A stretch of DNA of 64,000 bases from Salinivirgaceae bacterium. GTDB lineage: Bacteria > Bacteroidota > Bacteroidia > Bacteroidales > SZUA-534. Position 1 is the stretch's first letter. Every line of letters starts with the position of its first letter. The translations under genes and the position numbers were made by a program. The notes beneath the pieces are model-generated. The model saw only the letters and a program-made list of their open reading frames with translations, did no database searches and was not told where the DNA came from. Shown one piece after another: positions 15,528-62,635 of the stretch. Where the stretch lies: the NCBI GenBank assembly GCA_041664345.1, contig JBAYKX010000023.1, forward strand, positions 10,558 to 74,557. The letters are read 5' to 3'.

Positions 15528-17330
15528 ATGAACCCTACTCAAATAGAAACCTACCGGAAGCGGATTGATCAGTTTGCCATTGAATTGAAAACTGCCAAAC
15601 AAAGACATGCTCTTGTTTCCATCATTCGGTTATTTTGTATTATTGGAATTTTAGTTTCGTGGTTTTGGGTGTTTACAATCAATCCCTGGTTGGGTTCATT
15701 TTTAGGAAATTTTTTAATTGTCCTATTCCTCATTTTGCTTAAAGTTCATAAAACAATTGAAGAAAAACGGGACTTCCTAATCCAATTGATTGAAATTAAC
15801 CAAAAAGAACTGGATTGCTGCCAAGGGATATTTAGCCAATTTGAAGGAGGAGAGGAATTTGTTGATACCAACCATCCGTATTCTTACGATATGGATTTAT
15901 TTGGTGCCGGGTCATTGTTCCAATACATTAACCGCACTGTCACAAATAAGGGCAAGGAGCTTTTGGCCAATTGGCTTCAGAATATACCCTTGGATGAAAC
16001 AACAATTTTGAAAAACCAAAAAGCTATAAGGGAACTTGTTCCACAACTTTCGTTTCGTCAAAAGTTCAGGGCTTATGGAAAAGTATTTCAAACAAAGGCT
16101 GAAGACGAGAGTATGGTTCATCGTTGGATGTTTCTCCCTTCGTTTTTTAAACGGGCAAAGGTTGCTTCAACAATACTTTGGATAGTACCTGCAATTAATA
16201 TTTGTATTTTAATCCTCGCTATTTTTGGTTTTATAGGATGGTCAGTTTTTACAGTTACCATCATTGTTAACTTAGCAATTGTCGGAAGTCGCTTAAAGCA
16301 ATTCAATGAGGCTTATGCGCTGCTCACCAAAAGTCACGGCAGCTTAAAACGAATGGAGCAATTGTTGCTTCTGGTAGAATCGCTGAACCCTGAATGCAGG
16401 TTGAGTAAAGAGTTGTTAAGCCTTTTACATAAAAACCAAATACCGGCAAGTCGTCAAATTAATAAGTTAACAAAACTTTTAGATGGACTTGATAACCGGA
16501 ATAATATTTTGATAGGAATACTGCTAAATTCCTTATTATTATGGGATTGGCAATACCTTTTTAGGATAGAAAAATGGGCTCAAAGCCACCGAACCGATTA
16601 CGATAATTGGATTTATACCATAGGATATTTTGACGCTTTGAATTGCTTGGCTAATTTTTCATTCAACAATTCCGATTTTACCTTTCCGGAAATAGTGCCT
16701 GTTGGATTCCAACTGAGTGCTGTTGAAATGGGTCATCCTTTATTACTCAAAGAAGATAGAATCTGCAACAATTTTGACCTTTCCGGACAGCCCAGGTATG
16801 CCATTGTTACGGGTGCTAATATGGCCGGCAAAAGCACTTTTTTAAGAACTGTGGGAGTAAATCTGATTTTAGCCGGATGTGGAGCCCCGGTTTGCGCCAA
16901 AGAATTTAAAGTTACTCCGCTGCCCTTGTATTCAAGTATGCGAACGGAAGATTCGTTGATGAAACATGAATCGTATTTTTATGCCGAACTTAAGCGATTG
17001 CAGCGCATTGTTCATGAGTTGGATAAAGGCCGTAAATTATTTATTGTTTTGGATGAAATTTTGCGGGGCACCAATTCTGAGGACAAGCGCAAAGGTTCCA
17101 TTGGGTTTGTAAAAAAGATTACCGAAAAAATGGCTTATGGTTTGGTGGCTACCCACGACTTGGAGCTGGCAAAATTGGCCGAACAACTGCCGCAACTATT
17201 TACTGCAATATGCTTCGAAGTAACTCTAAATAACAATGAATTGGAATTCGATTATAAGCTGCAGCCGGGAGTTACACAAAATATGAATGCTTCCTTTTTA
17301 ATGCAACGGATGGGGATTATTGATATATGA
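15528..17330 (+). CDS. MutS-related ATPase (MutS domain V only) with N-terminal transmembrane segments
   Basis: C-terminal Walker A GANMAGKSTFLRTVG, Walker B FIVLDEILRGTN, and ATHD. The N-terminal part has several hydrophobic helices. No mismatch-binding domain is recognisable. Confidence 0.8.
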   Translation: MNPTQIETYRKRIDQFAIELKTAKQRHALVSIIRLFCIIGILVSWFWVFTINPWLGSFLGNFLIVLFLILLKVHKTIEEKRDFLIQLIEINQKELDCCQGIFSQFEGGEEFVDTNHPYSYDMDLFGAGSLFQYINRTVTNKGKELLANWLQNIPLDETTILKNQKAIRELVPQLSFRQKFRAYGKVFQTKAEDESMVHRWMFLPSFFKRAKVASTILWIVPAINICILILAIFGFIGWSVFTVTIIVNLAIVGSRLKQFNEAYALLTKSHGSLKRMEQLLLLVESLNPECRLSKELLSLLHKNQIPASRQINKLTKLLDGLDNRNNILIGILLNSLLLWDWQYLFRIEKWAQSHRTDYDNWIYTIGYFDALNCLANFSFNNSDFTFPEIVPVGFQLSAVEMGHPLLLKEDRICNNFDLSGQPRYAIVTGANMAGKSTFLRTVGVNLILAGCGAPVCAKEFKVTPLPLYSSMRTEDSLMKHESYFYAELKRLQRIVHELDKGRKLFIVLDEILRGTNSEDKRKGSIGFVKKITEKMAYGLVATHDLELAKLAEQLPQLFTAICFEVTLNNNELEFDYKLQPGVTQNMNASFLMQRMGIIDI

Positions 17331-17333
17331 GTA

Positions 17334-17566
17334 GGGAACTTGCAGCGCCTGCTGCGAGAGATTGGAAAACTGGGATGATTGGAAAATGGGAAAGGGTTGC
17401 CAGGTTACAAGGCTGCAGGGTAGAAAGGTAGCAGGGTTACAAGGTAACAAGGGAACAAGGTGGCCGGGTTACAGGGTTACAAGGTGGGAAATTAGGAACG
17501 TTGGAACTTGCAGCGCCTGCTGCGAGACAAGCTGCTGCGAGAGATTGGAAAATTGGAGCAATGAAC
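17334..17566 (+). repeat. Family C intergenic element: two direct hairpin cores bracketing a degenerate octamer array
   Basis: Cores lie at 17335-17373 and 17503-17556 (ggaacttgcagcgcctgctgcgagagattggaaaaytgg). Between them are 8-nt units ttacaagg ctgcaggg tagaaagg tagcaggg ttacaagg taacaagg gaacaagg tggccggg ttacaggg ttacaagg. Confidence 0.7.
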
Positions 17567-17606
17567 ATAAAAAATACCCACCCCAGTAAATTTCAAGAAC
17601 CTACCG

Positions 17607-17788
17607 CAGGGAAATCGCTTTTAAGAATTTCAATTTTAAACACGCTTTTTCGGCGCATGGTTTTTCACAATTTCAATTAAACTGTAGTGCTTGCGCCGAT
17701 TTTATACCGCAAATTCATATACCCCGAGTTGAAACTCGGGACTATTCATATTAAATCCCTCCGGGATTTCTTAAAAGCGAATTCCCTG
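17607..17788 (+). mobile_element. MITE-like element, family A, copy 1 (182 bp)
   Basis: Terminal inverted repeat cagggaaatcgcttttaagaa / ttcttaaaagcgaattccctg with 1 mismatch. Flanked by a perfect 10-bp direct repeat gaacctaccg (17597-17606 and 17789-17798). No ORF. A second copy is inverted at 50110-50293. Confidence 0.8.
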
Positions 17789-17823
17789 GAACCTACCGGG
17801 ATGGGGATTATTGAATAGGGAAC

Positions 17824-20800
17824 TTATTCAATACTGATTTTCTTATAGTATATTTTTTCGGCGGTTGCTATCACCACAAAATAATTGCCCGTAGTAAGCC
17901 TCGAAAGGTTTATTCCTTTGGTTAAATTAACTGATTCATTGCTAAATACAATTTTACCGGTTGCATCCAACACTTTAACCTGTTGTACTTTGGTAACCGG
18001 GTTTAATGCTTTAATATGCAAGAACCCTCTGACAGGATTCGGATAAATGTTAAATGCCTCAGAAGCCTCAACCAGTAATTTAATGCCCAAATCGTTTTTA
18101 ACGAGAATAGCAAAAAAACATGTTATAGTCAATCCGCCCAAATCGCTAGCCTTAATAAGCAATTCATGCAATTGCTTATCGGTAGTAATGGTTTTGTTCA
18201 CTACCAAATTATGGCCGGTAATGGTATAGTTTTTTGTGTCATCCAAGTTAGTTTGAGTATCGGAGGTAAATTCGAAGGTGTGTGAATCGTTCATATCTTC
18301 GTCCTCTACATTCAAAACACCAACCACCGTACCCAGCATATCGGAAACAAAAACCGTATCGTTGCTTAATAAAATGTCGGTTGGGGCTTCGTTAACATTG
18401 TTAATGATTACTTCAAAACTTCTTTCCATGCTGGAATTACCCTCGTCTATAGCTTTTATTCGATAATATAGTTTTGATTTAAATTCATAGTTAAATTCAG
18501 CACCAGATAATAAATTATAACCATCAATTGAAAATGCATTGTTATCATCGGAGCCAATTCCATCAACTAATTCAAATGAATGATTGCCCTGAGAATCTTC
18601 ATCAAATACTTGTAAATTAGCAACTACTGTATTTAATGGCATGTTTTCGTAAATTGTATATCCAATATAACCTATTTCAGTAATCGGGTCATTCATATCG
18701 GTTACCGTTAATACAAACCCCTTTTCAAATGAATCTCCTTCCGAATCAATGGTTTTGACCCTAATTTTTAGTTCATTCTTAGCCTCAAAGTTTTGAGTAT
18801 AAGCTTTTAACTGATTACCTTCAATAGTAAAATAAGTGTTATCATCGGAACCTTCCCCGACTACAAGTTCATAAGTAAAGCTATCGTTGCTGTTTTTATC
18901 AATAGTTGATAACGTGCTTATTGCCGATAAATCAGGCAAGTTTTCAGCAAAACTGGCAAACGACAATTGAATATCGGTAGGTGGATAATTGATGGGAAGA
19001 TACAAGCTCTGTATGTCGTTGGTATAGGTAGCTGTCATAAAACCATAGTATCCGGTACCAAAATACACCGAATCGCCCAAAGCAAATGAAATGGGATTAT
19101 TTCGGTTGTTCCCCAAATTTAGTAAGTCGCCCAAGTTTTCAACTTGATTGGTGCTTGGTTTGTAGCTTACAATATCTTTCTTGTTACCATAACAGATATA
19201 CCCTTTATTCCCAATTCCAATAGCTGTGGCATCATTCACTGAGAGATGTAATCCATCGGCAAAAATTTTCTGTTGCCAGCTATTGGTTGCCGGGTTGTAT
19301 TCCTGTATATCGCTCGATTGCGATGTCCCATTGGAATAGTTGACCCCTCCCGAAACATAACCCTTGCCCTCAACCACAAAGGCACAGGCCGATGTTCTTT
19401 TTGCTCCCGTAAAGGTGGCAATTTCAGACCACGAGTCATGTACGGCATCGTATTTCCAAAAGTCCTTTGTTTCATCCATTGCATCGGCTCCGGTGCCTAC
19501 ATAAGCGGTATCGTTAATAACAAAGCTAACCGCATCGTAACGGGCGGTTCCTGCAAAATTGCCAAGGGTTGTCCATTGATTGGTGGCAGGGTTGTATTCA
19601 TAAAAATCGGGATAGTAAGTAAAGGGGTATTTACTGCCTCCCAAGCCAACGTAACCCTTTCCATTAACAGCAAATGCAACAGCTTCTGTTCTTGCTGCCC
19701 CAGGGAAAGGAGCTACCTTTGTCCATACATCGGTTCCGGCATTATATTTCCAAAAGTCGCTTAACACACTGTCGGCATTTTCGCCCAAACCCACATAAAC
19801 GGTATTATCAATGGTAAAACTTACCGCACTGGAACGGGGAATTCCCCGGAAGGGATTGATTCCCGTTTCATCCACATCAATCAGGTTGATGGTAATGGTG
19901 GCGGTATCGGAAAATTCGCCATCGAAAGCCACTACTTGAAGGTTAAAAGATGGGTTAACTTCGTAATCTAAAAAGAGGTTGTTATTTACCGATATTCCAC
20001 CGGTTGAAGCATTTATAGCAAAAGTATTGTACAAGTTACCGGAAATTATAGCATGCGCTAATACATCGCCATCTAAATCGGAAGCAACAACAGAACCAAT
20101 AATAGTTCCATTCTGCTGGTTTTCTAAAACAGAAAATTCAGTATCAAGAAACTCTATGGATTCGTTTATATTTAAAATATTAATGGTAATTGCTGCGGTG
20201 TCGCTTAATTCTCCATCAGACACTAGCGTTAGAAGTTCAAAAGTTTTGTTTTCTTCAAAGTTTATAGCCGTGGAATCTATTACATAAACAACCCCTGTAG
20301 AGTCAATCACCCCAAAAACCTTATCGAGGCTTGCATGAATAATAGAATAGGTCAATTTTGAATTGAAATCTTCATCGGCAGCAACCAACGTGTCTAAAAT
20401 TGTACTATTATTTGGGTTTTCAGGAATGTTTAAAACTAAATCGGATAGGTGGGGTTTTTCATTTAGATCAATTAAATCTATATCAACTTTAACCGAATCA
20501 ATTAATTGACCATCAGAAACTAAAATTTTTAGATTAAATGATTTGTTTAGTTCATAGCTTAAATATTGTGTGTTTTTAATTTGAATGGCTCCTGTTGTGG
20601 AATTAAGGTCAAACACATTACTTATATTGCCCGAAACAATGGTGTAATTTAATGCATCATTATCTTCATCAAAAGCTTCTAGTTGATAAATAATTGAATC
20701 ATTGGGTAAATTTTCCTCTATTTCTAACTGTTTATAAGGGTTACATATAAGTTCATTAACATTATCAATTTGAATATTAACGAAAGAAGTATCAACAAAT

Positions 20801-22194
20801 TCCCCATCAGAAACTTGTACATATAAACTGAAATTTTGATTCTCTTCATAGTTGATTAAAGAAGAATCCATAACATAAATAACACCGGTCGAGTCAACTA
20901 CTCCAAATGCACCAGATGGATTTGCCTGAACAATAGAAAAAACATGGGTATCATTATAATCTTCGTCAGAAATTAAAATGGTATCAACAATTGAATTGTT
21001 TAAAGGATTTTCATCTATCAACTCTTGCAAATTATTGGTCAAAACTCTTTCATTAACATCATTAATTTTAATGTTGTAGCCTATGAGTTTGCTTGATGAT
21101 CCATCATATATTTTAATTATTGCGTACAATGAATCGTTTCGTTCAAAGTTAAAGTAACTTGAATCAATAATCGAAATCTGCCCTGTTTCACTATCTAATT
21201 TAATTGCATTATCATCATTCCCATCAAAGACCGAAAACTCTAGAATTCCATTACCATAATAATAAGCATCAACAGTATCAAGTATCTGATTATTATTTTG
21301 ATTTTCATTTATTTGGATTTCTTGATTATAAGTATAAAGTTCAGGCCCTTGATATTCATAAGCACCTATATCAATTCTTCCATATTGAATTCTTTCATTA
21401 CCTTCAAAATCATAATTAGTTATTAAAGAATCATTTGTAAAATTTGGGTCGCCCATATTTATGCAGGGTGATGTATTTTGTAACGCATAAGGATTTGCAC
21501 CGGAACCCACAAATAAAGGATCAACATCTATATTGCCATCAGCTTGTAATTGAGCCCCCACAATATCACAATTGGTTATTTTAGGAGTTGAGTTGTATGG
21601 ATCTAAATTTGCCTGCCCATTGCCTGAAACAATGCAGTTTGATATTTCAGATAAGGAGTAATTTATTTGAATTCCAGAAACTTGATTATCCGATATGGTA
21701 TTGTTTGTTATTTTAGGTGAAGAAAAATCACAACTAATACCAATCCAATAATTTTTTACAATTAGGTTCCCTTCGATTCGTGGAGATGCTTGATAACAAT
21801 AAATTGCTTCATTATTGTTACGTGTAATTAAATTATTAGCTACAATAAGTTTATTCATATTATAAACACACAGTGCACTACCATAGCCATCAAGCCAATA
21901 ACTGCCAAAGGCATTCCCAAACTGCATAATACAGAATTCAATTTTTGAAGTATCGTTTGAGCTGGGTGTTTCTAAAAACCGAATACCACCCCAACCACCA
22001 CTGATATAAGTCAATACCGAGTCTTTGGCTGTAAAAATTATCCTATTTTGTGCCGTTCCTTGGGCTAAAATCCTTCCTTGCACATTGAGTTTGTAATGCC
22101 CCTGAAACTCTACATAAACCCCCGGGTTTATGGTTAAGGTGCGGGCATTGTTAATGGTTAAGTTGTTATAACTTTTATGGTGTCGGCACTCCAT
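17824..22194 (-). CDS. C-terminal fragment of giant T9SS-secreted adhesin (beta-helix module 4, cadherin-like repeats, Kelch-like beta-propeller, more cadherin-like repeats, T9SS C-terminal domain)
   Basis: Its first residues (NNLTINNARTLTINPGVYVEFQGHYKLNVQGRIL) continue the repeat that the upstream ORF breaks off in. Cadherin-type domain ends are present (INDVNE, IDNVNE, LIDLNEKP, VTDMNDP). Kelch-like repeats (FWKYN..WT, FYEYNPATNQW). C-terminal IYPNPVRGFLHI... sorting domain. Confidence 0.8.
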   Translation of the reverse strand: MECRHHKSYNNLTINNARTLTINPGVYVEFQGHYKLNVQGRILAQGTAQNRIIFTAKDSVLTYISGGWGGIRFLETPSSNDTSKIEFCIMQFGNAFGSYWLDGYGSALCVYNMNKLIVANNLITRNNNEAIYCYQASPRIEGNLIVKNYWIGISCDFSSPKITNNTISDNQVSGIQINYSLSEISNCIVSGNGQANLDPYNSTPKITNCDIVGAQLQADGNIDVDPLFVGSGANPYALQNTSPCINMGDPNFTNDSLITNYDFEGNERIQYGRIDIGAYEYQGPELYTYNQEIQINENQNNNQILDTVDAYYYGNGILEFSVFDGNDDNAIKLDSETGQISIIDSSYFNFERNDSLYAIIKIYDGSSSKLIGYNIKINDVNERVLTNNLQELIDENPLNNSIVDTILISDEDYNDTHVFSIVQANPSGAFGVVDSTGVIYVMDSSLINYEENQNFSLYVQVSDGEFVDTSFVNIQIDNVNELICNPYKQLEIEENLPNDSIIYQLEAFDEDNDALNYTIVSGNISNVFDLNSTTGAIQIKNTQYLSYELNKSFNLKILVSDGQLIDSVKVDIDLIDLNEKPHLSDLVLNIPENPNNSTILDTLVAADEDFNSKLTYSIIHASLDKVFGVIDSTGVVYVIDSTAINFEENKTFELLTLVSDGELSDTAAITINILNINESIEFLDTEFSVLENQQNGTIIGSVVASDLDGDVLAHAIISGNLYNTFAINASTGGISVNNNLFLDYEVNPSFNLQVVAFDGEFSDTATITINLIDVDETGINPFRGIPRSSAVSFTIDNTVYVGLGENADSVLSDFWKYNAGTDVWTKVAPFPGAARTEAVAFAVNGKGYVGLGGSKYPFTYYPDFYEYNPATNQWTTLGNFAGTARYDAVSFVINDTAYVGTGADAMDETKDFWKYDAVHDSWSEIATFTGAKRTSACAFVVEGKGYVSGGVNYSNGTSQSSDIQEYNPATNSWQQKIFADGLHLSVNDATAIGIGNKGYICYGNKKDIVSYKPSTNQVENLGDLLNLGNNRNNPISFALGDSVYFGTGYYGFMTATYTNDIQSLYLPINYPPTDIQLSFASFAENLPDLSAISTLSTIDKNSNDSFTYELVVGEGSDDNTYFTIEGNQLKAYTQNFEAKNELKIRVKTIDSEGDSFEKGFVLTVTDMNDPITEIGYIGYTIYENMPLNTVVANLQVFDEDSQGNHSFELVDGIGSDDNNAFSIDGYNLLSGAEFNYEFKSKLYYRIKAIDEGNSSMERSFEVIINNVNEAPTDILLSNDTVFVSDMLGTVVGVLNVEDEDMNDSHTFEFTSDTQTNLDDTKNYTITGHNLVVNKTITTDKQLHELLIKASDLGGLTITCFFAILVKNDLGIKLLVEASEAFNIYPNPVRGFLHIKALNPVTKVQQVKVLDATGKIVFSNESVNLTKGINLSRLTTGNYFVVIATAEKIYYKKISIE

Positions 22195-25957: not shown

Positions 25958-26268
25958 AAAGTTGGGGATTTGGAAAGTTGGGAAGTTGGGGAAAGGGTAG
26001 CAAGGTAACAAGGTTGCAGGGTTACAAGATGGAAAATTGGGGACGTTGGAACTTGCAGCACCCGCTGCGAGACATGCCGCAGAGAGAGATTGGAAAATTG
26101 GGAAAATGGGAAGTTTCCAAGCCCAAAGGACGTTGGAAAGTCGGTAGTTATTCCTTTTTAACTTTCCATAGCCACATTGACGTTTCCATGTCCTCCGGAC
26201 GATGGAAAGTCAGTGCTGATGTGGAAAAGTCGTTGAAATTTGAAATTCTGGAAAGATGGGAAATTGGA
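25958..26268 (+). repeat. Family C intergenic element (heptamer/octamer-type units + hairpin core + extra hairpins)
   Basis: Reads aagttgg gaagttgg..., then tagcaagg taacaagg ttgcaggg ttacaaga, then the core ggaacttgcagcacccgctgcgagacatgccgcagagagagattggaaaattgg at 26048-26101. Next come the hairpins tggaaagt...actttcca and tttccat...atggaaa. Confidence 0.65.
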
Positions 26269-28998: not shown

Positions 28999-29844
28999 AT
29001 GAACTCATTTTTAGAATTATTCCATTATACTTTTATCAATCACGCCTTATTGGCTGCTGTTTTATCGAGCATTATATGTGGAATTTTGGGAACTTATATT
29101 GTGAGCAAACGCATGGTATTTATCTCCGGTGGAATCACCCATGCTTCGTTTGGTGGTATTGGAATGGCATTTTACTTTGGTTTGTCTCCTTTTATAGGAG
29201 CCACAGCGTTTGCCTTGCTTTCGGCACTGGGCATTGAATGGATATCGAAAAAAGGCAACATTCGCAACGATTCCAGCATCGGTATTCTTTGGTCGTTGGG
29301 TATGGCTATCGGGATTATTTTTGTTTACATCACACCCGGTTTTACACCCAATTTAATGAGTTACCTGTTTGGAAGTATATTAACTGTTGGAGGCTCTGAA
29401 TTATGGATAATGACAGTGCTTGCCGGGGTAATCATCTTGTTTTTCACCCTATTCTACCGACCTATACTTTTCTTTGCATTCGACGAAAGCTTTGCCCGTT
29501 CGCAAAAGGCTCCGGTGGCTTTCCTGAATTACACCCTTATATTGCTCATTGCCTTTGGAATTGTGATAAATATAAAAGTGGCCGGAATCATTTTGGTAAT
29601 GAGCATGCTTACCCTGCCCCAAAACACAGCCAACCTGTTTTCAAACAATTTTAAACACATACTAATTTACTCCATATTGATTAGTTTAGCCGGAACATTG
29701 GCTGGACTGGCAGGCTCGTTCTGGTTAGGAATTCCATCGGGAGCAGCCATCATTTTTACGCTTTCGCTCATATTTTTTATTGCCAAAATTGCCAAGCTTA
29801 TTTTTGATAGAAGGAAAAGAGAGAAAACAGAGATTAGAAGTTAG
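28999..29844 (+). CDS. znuB: Zinc/metal ABC transporter permease (ABC-3 family)
   Basis: 281 aa, multi-TM, follows znuC by 3 nt. The last codons and the TAG stop lie inside the first units of the downstream heptamer array. Confidence 0.85.
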   Translation: MNSFLELFHYTFINHALLAAVLSSIICGILGTYIVSKRMVFISGGITHASFGGIGMAFYFGLSPFIGATAFALLSALGIEWISKKGNIRNDSSIGILWSLGMAIGIIFVYITPGFTPNLMSYLFGSILTVGGSELWIMTVLAGVIILFFTLFYRPILFFAFDESFARSQKAPVAFLNYTLILLIAFGIVINIKVAGIILVMSMLTLPQNTANLFSNNFKHILIYSILISLAGTLAGLAGSFWLGIPSGAAIIFTLSLIFFIAKIAKLIFDRRKREKTEIRS

Positions 29845-30246
29845 AAGACCGAAGTTGGAAGTCAGAAGAATGAAGACGGAAGTTAGAAGTCAGAAGTTGG
29901 AAGACCGAAGCTAGAGTTTAGAAACAAGAAAACAGAGACAAGAAAACAGAGACAAGAAACCAGTACCAAAAGTTGGAAAATGTGGCAGCCCTAAAAGGGC
30001 GAAAGAACATAGCCAAGGGCAACGCCCTTGGTAAAGTAGCACAAGTAATAAGCGGTGCATCCAACTAAGTTGCAATGGAATGGAAACATAACATGCACCG
30101 CAATATAGATAGAGCAATTGGAAGTTGGAAGTTAAAGATTAGAAATTAGGAATTAGATGTTAGAAACTAGAAGCCAGATAATAGAATCTAGAAACCAGTA
30201 ACTAGCATCCAGCAACCAATAACCAGTAACCAGTAACCAGCAACCT
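29824..30246 (+). repeat. Family C composite element: 20 degenerate heptamers, ~150-nt hairpin-rich unique core, 18 degenerate heptamers
   Basis: Parsed directly. The left arm 29824-29963 reads aaaacag agattag aagttag aagaccg aagttgg aagtcag.... The right arm 30115-30240 reads caattgg aagttgg aagttaa agattag ... taaccag taaccag taaccag. Confidence 0.8.
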
Positions 30247-48570: not shown

Positions 48571-50043
48571 ATGAAAAATAAATATATAATAGTATTTGTA
48601 TTAACGGTCTTACTATTTTCTTGTACTGATAATTTTGAGGACTATAATACCGATAAAAAAAACCCTGAAGCAGTTGCAGGTGAGATGTTGTTTAGTAATG
48701 CTCAGAAAGAACTATCCGACCAATTGAGTTCAACCAGTGTGAACCAGAATGTGTTTAAGCTTTGGGCGCAATATTGGACTGAAACCCAATATACCGAAGA
48801 ATCAAACTATAACATTGTAAAAAGGACACAGCCCGATTGGAAGTTCCGTGTTTATTATCGTCAGATTTTAACCGACTTGCAAGAATCAAAAAAGCTTATT
48901 GCTCAAGCTGTGCCGCTCACTGAGGAAGAAAGGTTTGAAAATGCAAATAAGATTGAGATAATTGAGATGCTCACTGTATTTGCATACCAAAACTTAGTTG
49001 ATATTTTTGGTATGGTTCCTTATTCCGAGGCTCTGGATATCGATAATTTATATCCTGCTTATGATGATGGCCTCACTATTTATAGAGATTTAATTGTAAG
49101 GTTAGATGCTGCCATTGCTGGTATGGATGCAACGCATGGCAGTTTTAGCGCTACCGAAGATTTCTATTATCATGGAAATGTAAATGCTTGGATTAAATTT
49201 GCCAATACCCTGAAAATCAAACTTGCCATTAATTTATCGGATGTTGACCTTACTCTTGCTGGAGCTACAATTACAAGTGCCCTTGCTGGTGAAGGGGTAT
49301 TTACGTCGAGCATTGATGATGCAACAATGACTTATAAATCGGCGGTTCCAAATACAAATCCATTGTATGTTGATATAGTTTTATCGGGCCGCGATGACTT
49401 TGTTCCAGCAAATACATTGATTGATACCATGAATGCTTTGAATGATCCGCGCAGAGCCCAATATTTTACTTTGCATGATACTTCATCGGTAAATGGTGTT
49501 GAAAAATTAGCTTATGTAGGCGGTCGTTTTGGTTATACCAATTCCTATTTAAATTATTCCCACATTAATCCAAACATATACAAAGCTGAGGCTCCCGGTT
49601 TAATATTGACCTATACCGAATTGCTGTTTTATTTAGCTGAAGCCGCTGAACGTGGGTTCACTGTTCCGCTATCTGCTGAGGAATATTACAATGATGGTAT
49701 TGTTTCATCGTTCGATTTTTGGGGTGCCACCGATGTTGCTACCTATTTAGCAAACCCTGATGTAGCTTACTCAACCGCACCCGGTACGTGGAAAGAGAAA
49801 ATCTGTCTTCAATCATGGTTAGCTTTTTATACCAGAGGCGATGTAGCTTGGAATACTTACCGTAGATTAGATGGTTTAAAAATGAACATACCACGGCGGC
49901 CAAAAACTTTGGATGGATTGCCTCCAAGAAGGTTCACATTCCCCATTCAAGAACAATCATTGAATAAAGGAAAATACGACTTAGCCGCCGAAGCTGTGGG
50001 TGGCGATTTTTTGGAAACCCGAATCTTTTGGGATCTGCAATAA
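48571..50043 (+). CDS. SusD/RagB-family nutrient-binding lipoprotein
   Basis: Lipobox LLFSCTD. It lies immediately downstream of the SusC-like gene. The 490 aa length and TPR-like helical composition are typical. Confidence 0.85.
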   Translation: MKNKYIIVFVLTVLLFSCTDNFEDYNTDKKNPEAVAGEMLFSNAQKELSDQLSSTSVNQNVFKLWAQYWTETQYTEESNYNIVKRTQPDWKFRVYYRQILTDLQESKKLIAQAVPLTEEERFENANKIEIIEMLTVFAYQNLVDIFGMVPYSEALDIDNLYPAYDDGLTIYRDLIVRLDAAIAGMDATHGSFSATEDFYYHGNVNAWIKFANTLKIKLAINLSDVDLTLAGATITSALAGEGVFTSSIDDATMTYKSAVPNTNPLYVDIVLSGRDDFVPANTLIDTMNALNDPRRAQYFTLHDTSSVNGVEKLAYVGGRFGYTNSYLNYSHINPNIYKAEAPGLILTYTELLFYLAEAAERGFTVPLSAEEYYNDGIVSSFDFWGATDVATYLANPDVAYSTAPGTWKEKICLQSWLAFYTRGDVAWNTYRRLDGLKMNIPRRPKTLDGLPPRRFTFPIQEQSLNKGKYDLAAEAVGGDFLETRIFWDLQ

Positions 50044-50052
50044 ATGAAATTT

Positions 50053-50106
50053 AAAAAAAGGCTGCCTATTTAGACTATTGAGTCTTAATTAGGCAGCCTT
50101 TTTTTG
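50053..50106 (+). terminator. Rho-independent terminator after susD-like gene
   Basis: Long imperfect hairpin aggctgcctatttagac / gtcttaattaggcagcct flanked by an A-run and a T-run. Confidence 0.75.
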
Positions 50107-50109
50107 TAA

Positions 50110-50293
50110 CAAAGAAATCGCTCCTAAAAAATCCCGTTAGGGATTTAATATGAATAGCCCTGGGTTTCAACCCAGGGATCAAGTTTTCATGGTATAAAAT
50201 CGGCGCAAGCACTACCGTTTAATTGAAATTGTAAAGAAACCATGCGCTGAAAACGGGAATTAAAAATTGAAATTTTCCCAAGCGATTTCTCTG
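50110..50293 (-). mobile_element. MITE-like element, family A, copy 2 (184 bp, inverted)
   Basis: Aligns along its whole length with the reverse complement of 17607-17788. Termini caaagaaatcgct / agcgatttctctg. The hairpin stems differ from copy 1 by paired (compensatory) substitutions. Confidence 0.75.
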
Positions 50294-50351
50294 GCCTAAA
50301 AAGACTTCTTAGTCTTATTTAGGCAGCCCTTTTTGTCCGCAAAATTTTTAC

Positions 50352-52325
50352 CTATTGCTTAACAAACGTGGCTTTTGAAATACCACTATTTGTTTCAATA
50401 GATATTAAATACATGCCAGCTTCTAAATCGGTTACATCAATACTAGCTTTCTCATTATCAATGTTTTTGCTAAGCACCAATTGACCCATACTGTTATAAA
50501 TATGGGCAGTCTGAATTATTTCACCCGTTAATTCAACCTCCAATTGGTTAGATGCTGGATTTGGATAAATTGAAAAATTGACCTTTTTAGAATCTCCAAC
50601 TGAAATGTATTCCGAAAATTCCAATCTATCAATACTAAAGGTAGGAATAGCTTTAATGTTCAGTCTTATAATTTGCTGTCCTTGTGTCATATTAATAGTA
50701 ACAGTTACCGGTTGCATTGCGGTTGAACTGGTGGTTTTAGGTGCCGTTATTAATGGGGAAGAAACCGAACCAATTTTTAATTGCATTTTACCGCCGCCAG
50801 AGGTTGAGGCTAAATATGCTGTAACCGAATAAGTACCTGTTTTAGCAACATCCACGGTATATTCCAGCCATTCGCCCACTTCTACATTATAAACATAATA
50901 CATGGCGTCCGATTTTTTAATATCAACCCCATCGGTACGGTAAACACCACCTTCGTTTACAAAGTCAATATCGTGAAAGGTCAATAATTCGCCGCCGGTA
51001 TCATAGTTTTCGGCTTCTAAAACGCCGGGAATAGGAATAGGGGTTCCAGAGTAAGCAGAACGTTCCGTGCCAATCCTGAATAATTTCATTGGATACGATG
51101 GGATTGTATCCTGGGTATAAACATCCACAATACGGTAATAGCTATCTTTGAATGGCTCCGTGTTACGGTCAATGAAAGTAGTTCCCGATGTTTGTTTCAA
51201 TTCTCCAATAACGGCAAAAACGGTATTCAGCATCTTTTTTTCAACCAAAACTTTCTCAAGTAAACCGGCGCTGGCCCGGCTGGTCCACGAAACCTGAATG
51301 GCGGTGTCATCCACGGTAGTTAGTTTCACAGCGGTTATCGATGAATCGGATGCATGAATTAAAATATCTTTCATGTCGTTCCATTTGGCATTTTTCCGCT
51401 GCAATACCTGAAACCAGCCATCATCGTCCCATACGGTAAAGGCAAAACCATGTTTTAATGCTTGTTCCGTATAAGTGGCATAGTAAAACATCCGGGAATT
51501 ATAATCGCAATCCCACATGGCTCCAAATTCACCAATCAGTACTGGAATGTTGTGCGTCTGTGACCAAGTTTTAACACCAGCCATTTGATTTATCATGGCA
51601 TTTACGTCGCTCGTACTGCCCCAAATGCCGGTACTTTCTCCAGCAAAAGCCCAAGGGTCATACGAGTGGTAATTTCCTATTAAATAGGGATCATCTGTAT
51701 TTGGAATAGCGGCAGCTTTTAAATCAGCTGAGCTGCTCCATCCAGCTCCTGAATAAATAACCAGTCTGGTTGGATTTGCTTTGCGTATAATTCCCAAAAC
51801 ACGTGCATTCAATTCATCCACTTGCGCTACAGTTATTGCCCCATGTGGTTCATTTAAAATTTCGAATAGTAATTTTTCTGATTTATCCTTGAATCGATCG
51901 GCAATTTGGACCCAAAGCGAATCAAACCGGGCTTTTTGCCCGGCATAATCATCTTTTATCCAGCTGTCGTGGTGGGCATTAATAATTACAAATAAATCAC
52001 GGTCAAGACCCCAATTCACAATCTCTTCGACCCTATTTAAAAACGTAGCGTTAATAGTATAGGGCGAAGTGGACGAAAGATGATTGCCCCATGTAACAGG
52101 AACGCGTACGGTTTTAAATCCGGCTTCTTTATACATATCAGAATAATACTCCTGAGCCTTGCCTGCCCATTCACCTTCATTGGGTGCATCCAACGTATTA
52201 CCCATATTTATGCCACGCTCCATGGCCACAATTGCTTGTTGCGCTGTTATTTGTGCTTGTATGCTTATGGTACAAACAAGCATTGCCATTAAAATGGTAC
52301 TTCTTTTTGTTGTAGTATTTTTCAT
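50352..52325 (-). CDS. GH5 endoglucanase/glycanase with CBM6-like module and T9SS C-terminal domain
   Basis: GH5 acid/base LLFEILNEPH and nucleophile region LIGEFGA. A CBM6-like segment (LEAENYDTGG...YRTDGVDI). C-terminal FSIYPNPASNQLEVEL sorting domain. Confidence 0.85.
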   Translation of the reverse strand: MKNTTTKRSTILMAMLVCTISIQAQITAQQAIVAMERGINMGNTLDAPNEGEWAGKAQEYYSDMYKEAGFKTVRVPVTWGNHLSSTSPYTINATFLNRVEEIVNWGLDRDLFVIINAHHDSWIKDDYAGQKARFDSLWVQIADRFKDKSEKLLFEILNEPHGAITVAQVDELNARVLGIIRKANPTRLVIYSGAGWSSSADLKAAAIPNTDDPYLIGNYHSYDPWAFAGESTGIWGSTSDVNAMINQMAGVKTWSQTHNIPVLIGEFGAMWDCDYNSRMFYYATYTEQALKHGFAFTVWDDDGWFQVLQRKNAKWNDMKDILIHASDSSITAVKLTTVDDTAIQVSWTSRASAGLLEKVLVEKKMLNTVFAVIGELKQTSGTTFIDRNTEPFKDSYYRIVDVYTQDTIPSYPMKLFRIGTERSAYSGTPIPIPGVLEAENYDTGGELLTFHDIDFVNEGGVYRTDGVDIKKSDAMYYVYNVEVGEWLEYTVDVAKTGTYSVTAYLASTSGGGKMQLKIGSVSSPLITAPKTTSSTAMQPVTVTINMTQGQQIIRLNIKAIPTFSIDRLEFSEYISVGDSKKVNFSIYPNPASNQLEVELTGEIIQTAHIYNSMGQLVLSKNIDNEKASIDVTDLEAGMYLISIETNSGISKATFVKQ

Positions 52326-62469: not shown

Positions 62470-62635
62470 CAGTTCTTCTTCTGTCTCCTGGTTGCTGGTT
62501 GCTCGTTACTGGTTGCAGGGTTTCAAGGTTTCAGGGTTGAAGGGTTAAATGGTTACAAGGTTAAATTGTTACTATCCAGCTTCTAATCTCTAATCTCTAA
62601 CTTCTAACTTCCAACTTCCGACTTCTAGCTTCCAT
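62470..62635 (-). repeat. Family C composite element (heptamers - octamers - heptamers), reverse orientation
   Basis: The minus strand reads aagctag aagtcgg aagttgg aagttag aagttag agattag agattag aagctgg. Next come the octamers taacaatt taaccttg taaccatt taaccctt caaccctg aaaccttg aaaccctg, then caaccag taacgag caaccag caaccag. Confidence 0.75.

Follow-up and report, generated by a model that had tools for sequence, protein, structure and literature searches.

Which enzyme moved the 182-bp sequence with inverted ends that stands between two convergent genes in this Salinivirgaceae genome, and to which class of mobile DNA does it belong? An earlier note, made from the letters of the same stretch (the window, 64,000 nucleotides or 64 kb in all), had called it a MITE with terminal inverted repeats (TIRs), had found its 10-bp target-site duplication unusual and had taken its autonomous partner, and with it the superfamily, to be unknown. 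The MITE call is borne out by the TIRs, by duplications that differ among insertions, by copies at unrelated loci and by TIRs held in common with transposase-bearing elements. Judged from its ends, the element (copy 1) is very probably a non-autonomous MITE with the TIRs of a Bacteroidota ISAs1-family insertion sequence (IS), likely moved in trans by an ISAs1 DDE transposase.

Structure and setting of the two window copies

The features of copy 1 and its neighbouring genes are as follows.

15528-17330, + strand: MutS-family protein gene, 600 aa, with MutS_V and MutS_III domains; its stop codon lies 277 nt before the element
17597..17606, no strand: left target-site duplication GAACCTACCG, exact, abutting the TIR; the 10-mer is otherwise absent from the window
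17607..17788, + strand: whole MITE, copy 1, 182 bp, read as a non-autonomous ISAs1-family element from its subfamily relatives and the TIR match to ISAs1 insertion sequences
17607..17627, + strand: left TIR CAGGGAAATCGCTTTTAAGAA, presumed transposase binding and cleavage site, 21/21 against the left end of ~1254-bp ISAs1 elements
17650..17699, no strand: hairpin 1, TCGGCGCA ... TGCGCCGA, 8-bp stem and 34-nt loop (arms 17650-57/17692-99), from the repeat finder
17722..17740, no strand: hairpin 2, (C)CCCGAGTT GA AACTCGGG, G+C-rich stem (arms 17723-30/17733-40), from the repeat finder
17753..17769, no strand: hairpin 3, AAATCCC TCC GGGATTT, adjoining the right TIR (arms 17753-59/17763-69), from sequence and folding
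17768..17788, - strand: right TIR CAGGGAATTCGCTTTTAAGAA, with 1 mismatch against the left arm, from the repeat finder and pattern search
17789..17798, no strand: right target-site duplication GAACCTACCG, exact, abutting the TIR
17824-22194, - strand: cadherin/kelch protein gene, 1456 aa, with a type-IX secretion sorting domain; its 3' end lies 36 nt from the element

A repeat finder run over 17400-18000 recovered the TIR arms CAGGGAAATCGCTTTTAAGAA / TTCTTAAAAGCGAATTCCCTG, 21 nt long and complementary at 20 of 21 positions (95%), at 17607-17627 and 17768-17788, and GAACCTACCG abuts both arms exactly; the 182-bp element, the 21-bp TIR with one mismatch and the perfect duplication thus stand as the earlier note had given them. 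When the TIR pattern was searched through the 64 kb with up to 3 mismatches, only the two arm sites were returned, where shuffled sequence is expected to give 0.00, and the 10-mer occurred only at its two flanking sites (0.02 expected from shuffles). Neither the TIRs nor the flanking duplication of copy 1 are expected by chance. Folded as single-stranded DNA, copy 1 reaches -32.9 kcal/mol (z = -5.7 against shuffles), and all three internal hairpins that had been described were located. The lack of coding capacity also held: the open reading frames overlapping copy 1 are mechanical only, of at most 59 aa, and reading frames in the MITE subfamily are broken by indels between copies. No ISAs1 transposase was detected in the 64-kb window by tblastn with the transposase of the partner elements described below, which agrees, as regards ISAs1, with the earlier remark that the window holds no transposase gene.

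Copy 1 is placed between two convergent genes. Its empty site, as we reconstructed it, reads ...AAATTTCAAGAACCTACCGGGATGGGGATTATTG..., and no orthologous empty site was found; relatives whose MutS-like proteins are 90% and 76% identical to that of the window carry different downstream genes, and synteny is not conserved.

The gap around copy 1 holds further repeats. A stretch of ~30 nt at the 3' end of the MutS-like gene (GGATGGGGATTATTGA..TAGGGAACTT; 17309-17340) recurs at 17799-17827, right after the right duplication of the MITE. A direct repeat of this length therefore stands on either side of the block 17331-17798, which comprises the MITE, 8-nt tandem repeats and motif copies. The repeat might have arisen by an earlier insertion that left a long duplication, or by rearrangement on the spot; in locus L142 the MutS-like 3'-end sequence is single and stands at the gene end. 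The motif copies belong to a second repeat family, GGAACTTGCAGCGCCTGCTGCGAGA(G)ATTGGAAAA, which holds a small GCAGC..GCTGC hairpin and occurs at three sites in the window (17335-17373, 17503-17556 and 26040-26105), against a chance expectation of 0. It was also seen at L142 4301-4340 and at L137 4406-4432 and 5006-5055, and in relatives it directly follows the stop of the MutS-like gene. Two motif copies in L137, the 90%-identical relative, flank a two-gene cassette encoding 60 aa and a 92-aa protein that weakly matches a Cas2-like Pfam entry; the motif may be a recombination or insertion site for another mobile element.

Imperfect 7-8 nt tandem-repeat arrays are present in several intergenic regions of the window (17402-17485, 25958-25990, 29822-29963, 30116-30245 and 62488-62632), with units such as (A/G)GGTTACA, TTAGAAG and AACCAGT in 4-10 units and 65-80% matches; repeats of 7-8 nt also lie 3' of the MutS-like gene in L137 (4309-4390). 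With 7-nt arrays on either side, the segment 29987-30031 (- strand) matches the Rfam Acido-Lenti-1 RNA at 41.6 bits against a gathering score of 37 (E = 5e-6), an odd match for a genome otherwise Bacteroidota-like (Marinilabiliales or Salinivirgaceae relatives).

The window holds two copies of the element, the second of which the earlier note had overlooked:

50110..50293, - strand: second, older MITE copy of the same subfamily, 184 bp, 82% identical to copy 1 over its whole length

Copy 2 also lies between convergent open reading frames, 48571-50043(+) and 50352-52325(-). It carries 5 mismatches in each TIR and its duplication is gone; copy 1, given its 20/21 arm matches and perfect duplication, looks the younger of the two. 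In place of a 10-bp duplication, copy 2 has on each side a hairpin that resembles a terminator and carries a T run: ggctgcct..aggcagccttttttt to its left (50040-50110) and gcctaaa..tttaggcagcccttttt to its right (50294-50340). The two are similar and together form an imperfect direct repeat of ~37 nt.

Related copies and the 10-bp target-site duplication

We scanned one genome per prokaryotic species with the query GGGAAWTCGCTTTTAAGAA, which gave 66 loci, and metagenomes with the query GGGAAATCGCTTTTAAGAA, which gave 65. In total ~130 loci carry a 19-21 nt end, nearly all of them in Bacteroidota: Cytophagales, Cyclobacteriaceae, Flammeovirgaceae, Marinilabiliales, Prolixibacteraceae and a few Flavobacteriaceae or Bacteroidales. 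Among cultured bacteria, Gaoshiqia sediminis A06, Plebeiibacterium marinum D04 and Belliella marina have related MITEs. The TIR match is often found at 120-140 nt from the end of a contig, as in several metagenome-assembled genomes (MAGs), which is as expected of a multi-copy repeat in a k=141 assembly. The scan of viral contigs gave no TIR match, and blastn of the TIR against plasmids returned chance matches only; a match on a Persicobacter plasmid was set aside, as it falls at an ORF start whose N-terminus resembles a SusD-type lipoprotein signal. No transposase adjoins the solo TIRs of the genome loci, which are bordered by ordinary genes only; these solo ends belong to short or decayed elements. 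We make no claim of spread beyond Bacteroidota. The matches labelled Comamonadaceae, Simkaniaceae and metagenome OW818642 are solo, lie in ordinary sequence and have their first bases altered. At L061 2998-3305, on a contig labelled uncultured Limnohabitans sp. (a betaproteobacterium bin), these ends enclose a 308-bp MITE, and its 10-bp duplication, TATCAGTGGG, is perfect. This contig, at 49% G+C, may be mis-binned.

Pairing the arms by script yielded 11 longer elements and 44 short ones, of 143-415 bp. Among the short elements at least 14 groups can be told apart, with interiors unrelated to one another and to the long elements, and all that the groups share is ~21-24 nt at each end. The largest group is the window subfamily, with 16 copies (two in the window and 14 on other contigs) of 181-238 bp and 72-85% identity to copy 1; one of them, L025, belongs to the MAG that encodes the 90%-identical MutS-like protein. 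All 15 subfamily copies examined are intergenic, and they stand in convergent, divergent and tandem gene contexts with no consistent orientation.

For 53 TIR-paired elements with both 10-nt flanks present, the flanks were compared with each other, 10-mers lying 15 nt further out serving as controls. Mismatches between the two flanks were distributed as follows.

0 mismatches: 16/53 elements
1 mismatch: 4/53 elements
2 mismatches: 8/53 elements

Control flanks had at least 4 mismatches in every case. After removal of doubly sampled loci, 16 independent insertions with at most 1 mismatch remained, and the duplication sequences of all 16 were different, A+T-rich (33% G+C) and without clear consensus. 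Within the window subfamily the perfect 10-mers are GAACCTACCG, CTTTCCGATT, GACTCTTTAG and TCAAAAAAAT, and several other duplications have decayed to 8-9/10 matches. Because the flanking 10-mers differ among the 16 independent insertions, the 10-bp repeat is a target duplication and lies outside the element consensus. The earlier note had held that its call would fail if other copies lacked TIRs or duplications, or if the 10-mer belonged to the consensus; the other copies keep their TIRs, and the duplications differ in 16 of 16 cases. We also considered GGGATGGGGATT as a target motif, which adjoins the insertion in the window and in L061, and rejected it, as it is absent from the other ~160 end flanks examined. 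The motif CGGGATGGGGATT adjoins the L061 duplication, as in the window, and was not seen at other insertions.

These data bear on whether a mobile element is present at all. The gap between the two genes is repeat-rich, and the ~30 nt of the MutS-like 3' end duplicated just after the element might suggest a local duplication or a set of chance features. With zero matches expected by chance, and sixteen subfamily copies at unrelated loci whose duplications differ from insertion to insertion, such an origin is scarcely credible.

ISAs1-family elements with the same ends

The 11 longer elements, of 950-1311 bp and mostly 1254-1255 bp, all come from metagenome loci.

Elements of 1207-1311 bp: L079, L085, L086, L102, L113, L115, L126, L127, L129, L130
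Element of 950 bp, gene lost: L077

Their left end, CAGGGAAATCGCTTTTAAGAA, matches the left TIR of the MITE at 21 of 21 positions, and their right end, CAGGGAAATCGCTTTTAACAT, matches over the first 18 nt. Intact long copies contain one ORF of 374-378 aa, with the stop codon TAA inside the right end; the ORF of L102 is truncated to 337 aa. The 1227-bp element of L129 is bounded by a perfect 10-bp duplication, TGGAAGAGCC, the only one seen among the full-length copies. The others lie in very short contigs or in contigs with flanks that recur at other contig ends, and these recurring flanks probably point to chimeric assembly of a multi-copy element.

We profile-scanned two of the proteins, those of L129 and L130. 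Both contain Pfam domains PF13808 (DDE_Tnp_1_assoc) and PF01609 (DDE_Tnp_1), and the one NCBIfam model that either protein matched was the equivalog NF033564 (ISAs1 family transposase), with scores of 391 and 396 bits where the cutoff is 70. A tblastn search of plasmids with the L129 protein returned 763 records, the best being annotated ISAs1 or ISAs1-like transposases at 41-44% identity. The check that the earlier note had proposed, a search for a transposase gene between the same TIRs, thus finds such genes in the long metagenome elements, and the partner it had regarded as unknown has a family: the ~1.25-kb elements that share the ends of the MITE code for transposases of the ISAs1 family. 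The interior of the MITE has no detectable similarity to the interior of the IS, and the MITE is therefore no simple internal-deletion derivative. A 47-aa peptide, from an open frame through the IS-type end at many contig ends, was considered as a transposase C-terminus and dropped, since searches returned only contig-end fragments and one solo end.

One of these insertion sequences, 1254 bp long as in L130 and L079, is repeated identically so often that contigs by the dozen stop exactly 112-141 nt inside its left end. Several metagenomes are fragmented by it, as are two Cytophagales/Flammeovirgaceae MAGs (JAJTGQ01, JADBYQ01), and the contig breaks inside it point to a recent burst.

Loci touched by the 1254-bp IS: L001, L005, L010-L013, L020, L022, L024, L042, L044, L048, L049, L053, L054, L056, L057, L062 and many of L074-L134

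Members of the ISAs1 family have ends beginning CAGGG and duplications of 8-10 bp. We checked these traits in four or five annotated ISAs1 elements from plasmids of cyanobacteria and proteobacteria.

ISCysp8, Gloeothece: end CAGGGCAATCGCATTTAATTT, 16/21 identical to the MITE arm; no duplication seen
ISVa13, Vibrio: end CAGGGTGAGATCGCG; perfect 10-bp duplication AGTGGCTAAC
ISAeme1, Aeromonas: end CAGGGCAAGATCGCG; no duplication seen
ISOan1, Octadecabacter: ends CAGGGGAATCGCATGA / CAAGGCAATCGCATGA; 9-bp duplication

All four start with CAGGG, as does the TIR of the MITE. The family at large (ISAs1, the E. coli H-repeat element ISEc1, IS1358, ISVa13, ISCysp8 and ISOan1) has ends reading CAGGG and then nAATCGC, as the window element does, and duplications of 9-10 bp, beside the 10 bp of the window element. 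The end signature CAGGGnAATCGC and a duplication of 9-10 bp are ISAs1 family traits that the window element shares. Given ISAs1 parentage, the duplications of 9-10 bp usual in the family therefore explain the 10 bp at the MITE, and its length is not the oddity the earlier note had seen in it, L129 and ISVa13 both having a perfect 10 bp.

There are also differences. The full-length relatives found here measure 1.2-1.3 kb and encode a single transposase of ~375 aa, whereas the window MITE has no transposase and is one seventh the size. Both ends of the MITE resemble the left end of the IS (..AAGAA), whereas the IS has one left and one right end (..AACAT).

How would such an element move? An ISAs1 DDE transposase, supplied by a full-length copy elsewhere in the cell, would bind both 21-nt ends and insert the 182-bp segment at a target site where the two strands are cut 10 bp apart; repair of this stagger would leave the GAACCTACCG duplication. 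Copy 1 would in this way have landed between the convergent genes for the MutS-family ATPase and the type-IX-secreted cadherin/kelch protein, where it may persist because a gap between convergent genes is harmless. We infer the mobilisation in trans and the staggered cut by an ISAs1 transposase from the identity of the ends alone, no full-length element having been seen in one genome or bin with the subfamily MITEs. More tentatively, the DDE_Tnp_1 domain common to IS4-type transposases, together with what is known of Tn5 and Tn10, would suggest cut-and-paste chemistry.

A similar principle is known from another family. IS231-type elements make duplications of 10-12 bp and mobilise short cassettes; the MIC231 cassettes of Bacillus cereus are short, have the ends of IS231 (IS4 family), are moved in trans with duplications of ~10 bp and often hold passenger genes. 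The window element differs from MIC231 in transposase family, in phylum and in having no passenger gene. Could an IS4-type or other transposase with duplications of 9-12 bp have moved copy 1, the ISAs1 link being coincidental? The duplication lengths of IS231-type elements would allow it, and ISAs1 and IS4 transposases share DDE_Tnp_1. However, the transposase-bearing elements match the left TIR of the MITE at 21/21 positions and its right end over the first 18 nt, the partner proteins score 391-396 bits on the ISAs1 equivalog and on no other NCBIfam model, and the signature CAGGGnAATCGC recurs in annotated ISAs1 elements. An IS4/MIC231-like cassette was rejected, since no transposase-bearing element with these ends was found outside ISAs1, and mobilisation by another family is highly improbable.

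A stronger alternative concerns the present state of the element. Copy 1 could be a dead fossil, an old ISAs1-type MITE whose transposase has since been lost from the lineage and which drifts neutrally and immobile. Consistent with this, the 64-kb window holds no ISAs1 transposase, its two copies are just 82% identical and copy 2 has decayed TIRs and no duplication, and the copies in other genomes, 72-85% identical to copy 1, give no sign of a recent subfamily burst. Against great age, copy 1 retains 20/21 TIR matches and a 10/10 duplication; moreover, the view is one of 64 kb of a genome, and a transposase gene could lie elsewhere in it. We regard the fossil state as a real possibility, if somewhat short of an even one.

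Prokaryotic MITEs are short, non-coding, intergenic and multi-copy, bounded by TIRs and duplications, strongly folded, and share their TIRs with an autonomous IS (PMC3184786, PMC10969869). The window element has all of these general features, like Correia, ERIC, Nezha and BrickBuilt, and its 182 bp fall below a MITE size limit of ~600 bp. It differs in parent family from the classical bacterial MITEs (Correia/CREE of Neisseria, ERIC/IRU of enterobacteria, RUP of pneumococcus, Nezha of cyanobacteria and BrickBuilt of Porphyromonas), and its 10-bp duplication is longer than those of the MITE classes named in the earlier note (2 bp, 3 bp and 8/9 bp). Neither of two reviews of prokaryotic MITEs mentions ISAs1 (PMC3184786 and PMC10969869). 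In the searchable literature outside ISfinder we found no MITE linked to ISAs1, works with both terms treating them separately, and no match to the TIR sequence itself. ISAs1 is among the less-studied IS families.

The window element is well explained and is no new kind of mobile DNA; nothing in it alters the understanding of MITEs. The gain is partly one of annotation, since widespread intergenic repeats of Bacteroidota can now be labelled as ISAs1-family MITEs, recognised by a 21-nt end and a 10-bp duplication. Such MITEs are also natural minimal substrates, which would define the needs of the transposase as ~21 nt per end, and their many independent insertions could be used to study target choice.

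Hairpins within the subfamily

Fifteen of the 16 recovered subfamily copies were taken into an alignment. Hairpins 1 and 2 are kept in all 15, with 95% of cells paired; for hairpin 1 the figure is 97%, with one compensatory C-G to U-A change, and hairpin 2 has compensatory double changes in 3 of its 7 pairs, including between the two window copies, whose arms read CCCGAGTT/AACTCGGG and CCTGGGTT/AACCCAGG. Four pairs in the two hairpins have thus changed on both sides. The observed pairing values were reached by 0-1 of 500 shuffles, which leave shared ancestry in place, and pairing falls to ~40% in slid registers. At the position of hairpin 3 there are two unrelated versions: some copies have in its place AACCCGCC..GGCGGGTT, G+C-rich and followed by a T run. 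Taken together, the alignment is suggestive of constraint on hairpins 1 and 2.

Could the hairpins be the reason that the MITE spread or persisted, serving as a signal in RNA or DNA, for example for ending transcripts, for stability or for protein binding? The conservation of hairpins 1 and 2, the exchange of hairpin 3 for an unrelated G+C-rich hairpin with a T run at the same position, and the placement of both window copies between convergent genes are all in keeping with co-option of this kind. On the other side, Rfam gave nothing at gathering score for the element (the only weak match in 17300-17900, a spurious H19_3 with E = 0.7, lies outside it), a terminator scan of 17200-18000 was negative, and the subfamily copies show no preferred gene context or orientation. 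The G-U and A-C exceptions are balanced and so give no preference to either strand as RNA. Apparent compensatory changes can also arise without selection, by template-switch correction of quasi-palindromes. Because of this process, the shared ancestry, the balanced strands, the Rfam and terminator results and the lack of orientation bias, we do not assign a function to the hairpins, and consider co-option unlikely. The bolder form of the idea, in which selection acts on the three covarying hairpins as a functional module of structured RNA or DNA (a transcript-end or stability element, say), spread through Bacteroidota intergenic regions by way of ISAs1 ends, we hold to be improbable.

Beyond the subfamily, at least 14 different interiors share one 21-nt ISAs1 end, which may have taken up unrelated structured sequences again and again. 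Within the subfamily, several copies contain extra palindromic inserts, which stand either within the hairpin 2 loop (TCCCGATAGCTATCGGGA is one) or beyond this hairpin.

Copies with extra palindromes: L124 5097-5291, L122 3307-3501, L090 3969-4164, L099 6182-6386, L025 8-213, L125 3434-3671, L104 1634-1840

These inserts suggest either that small palindromic elements have nested there or that the hairpin has grown.
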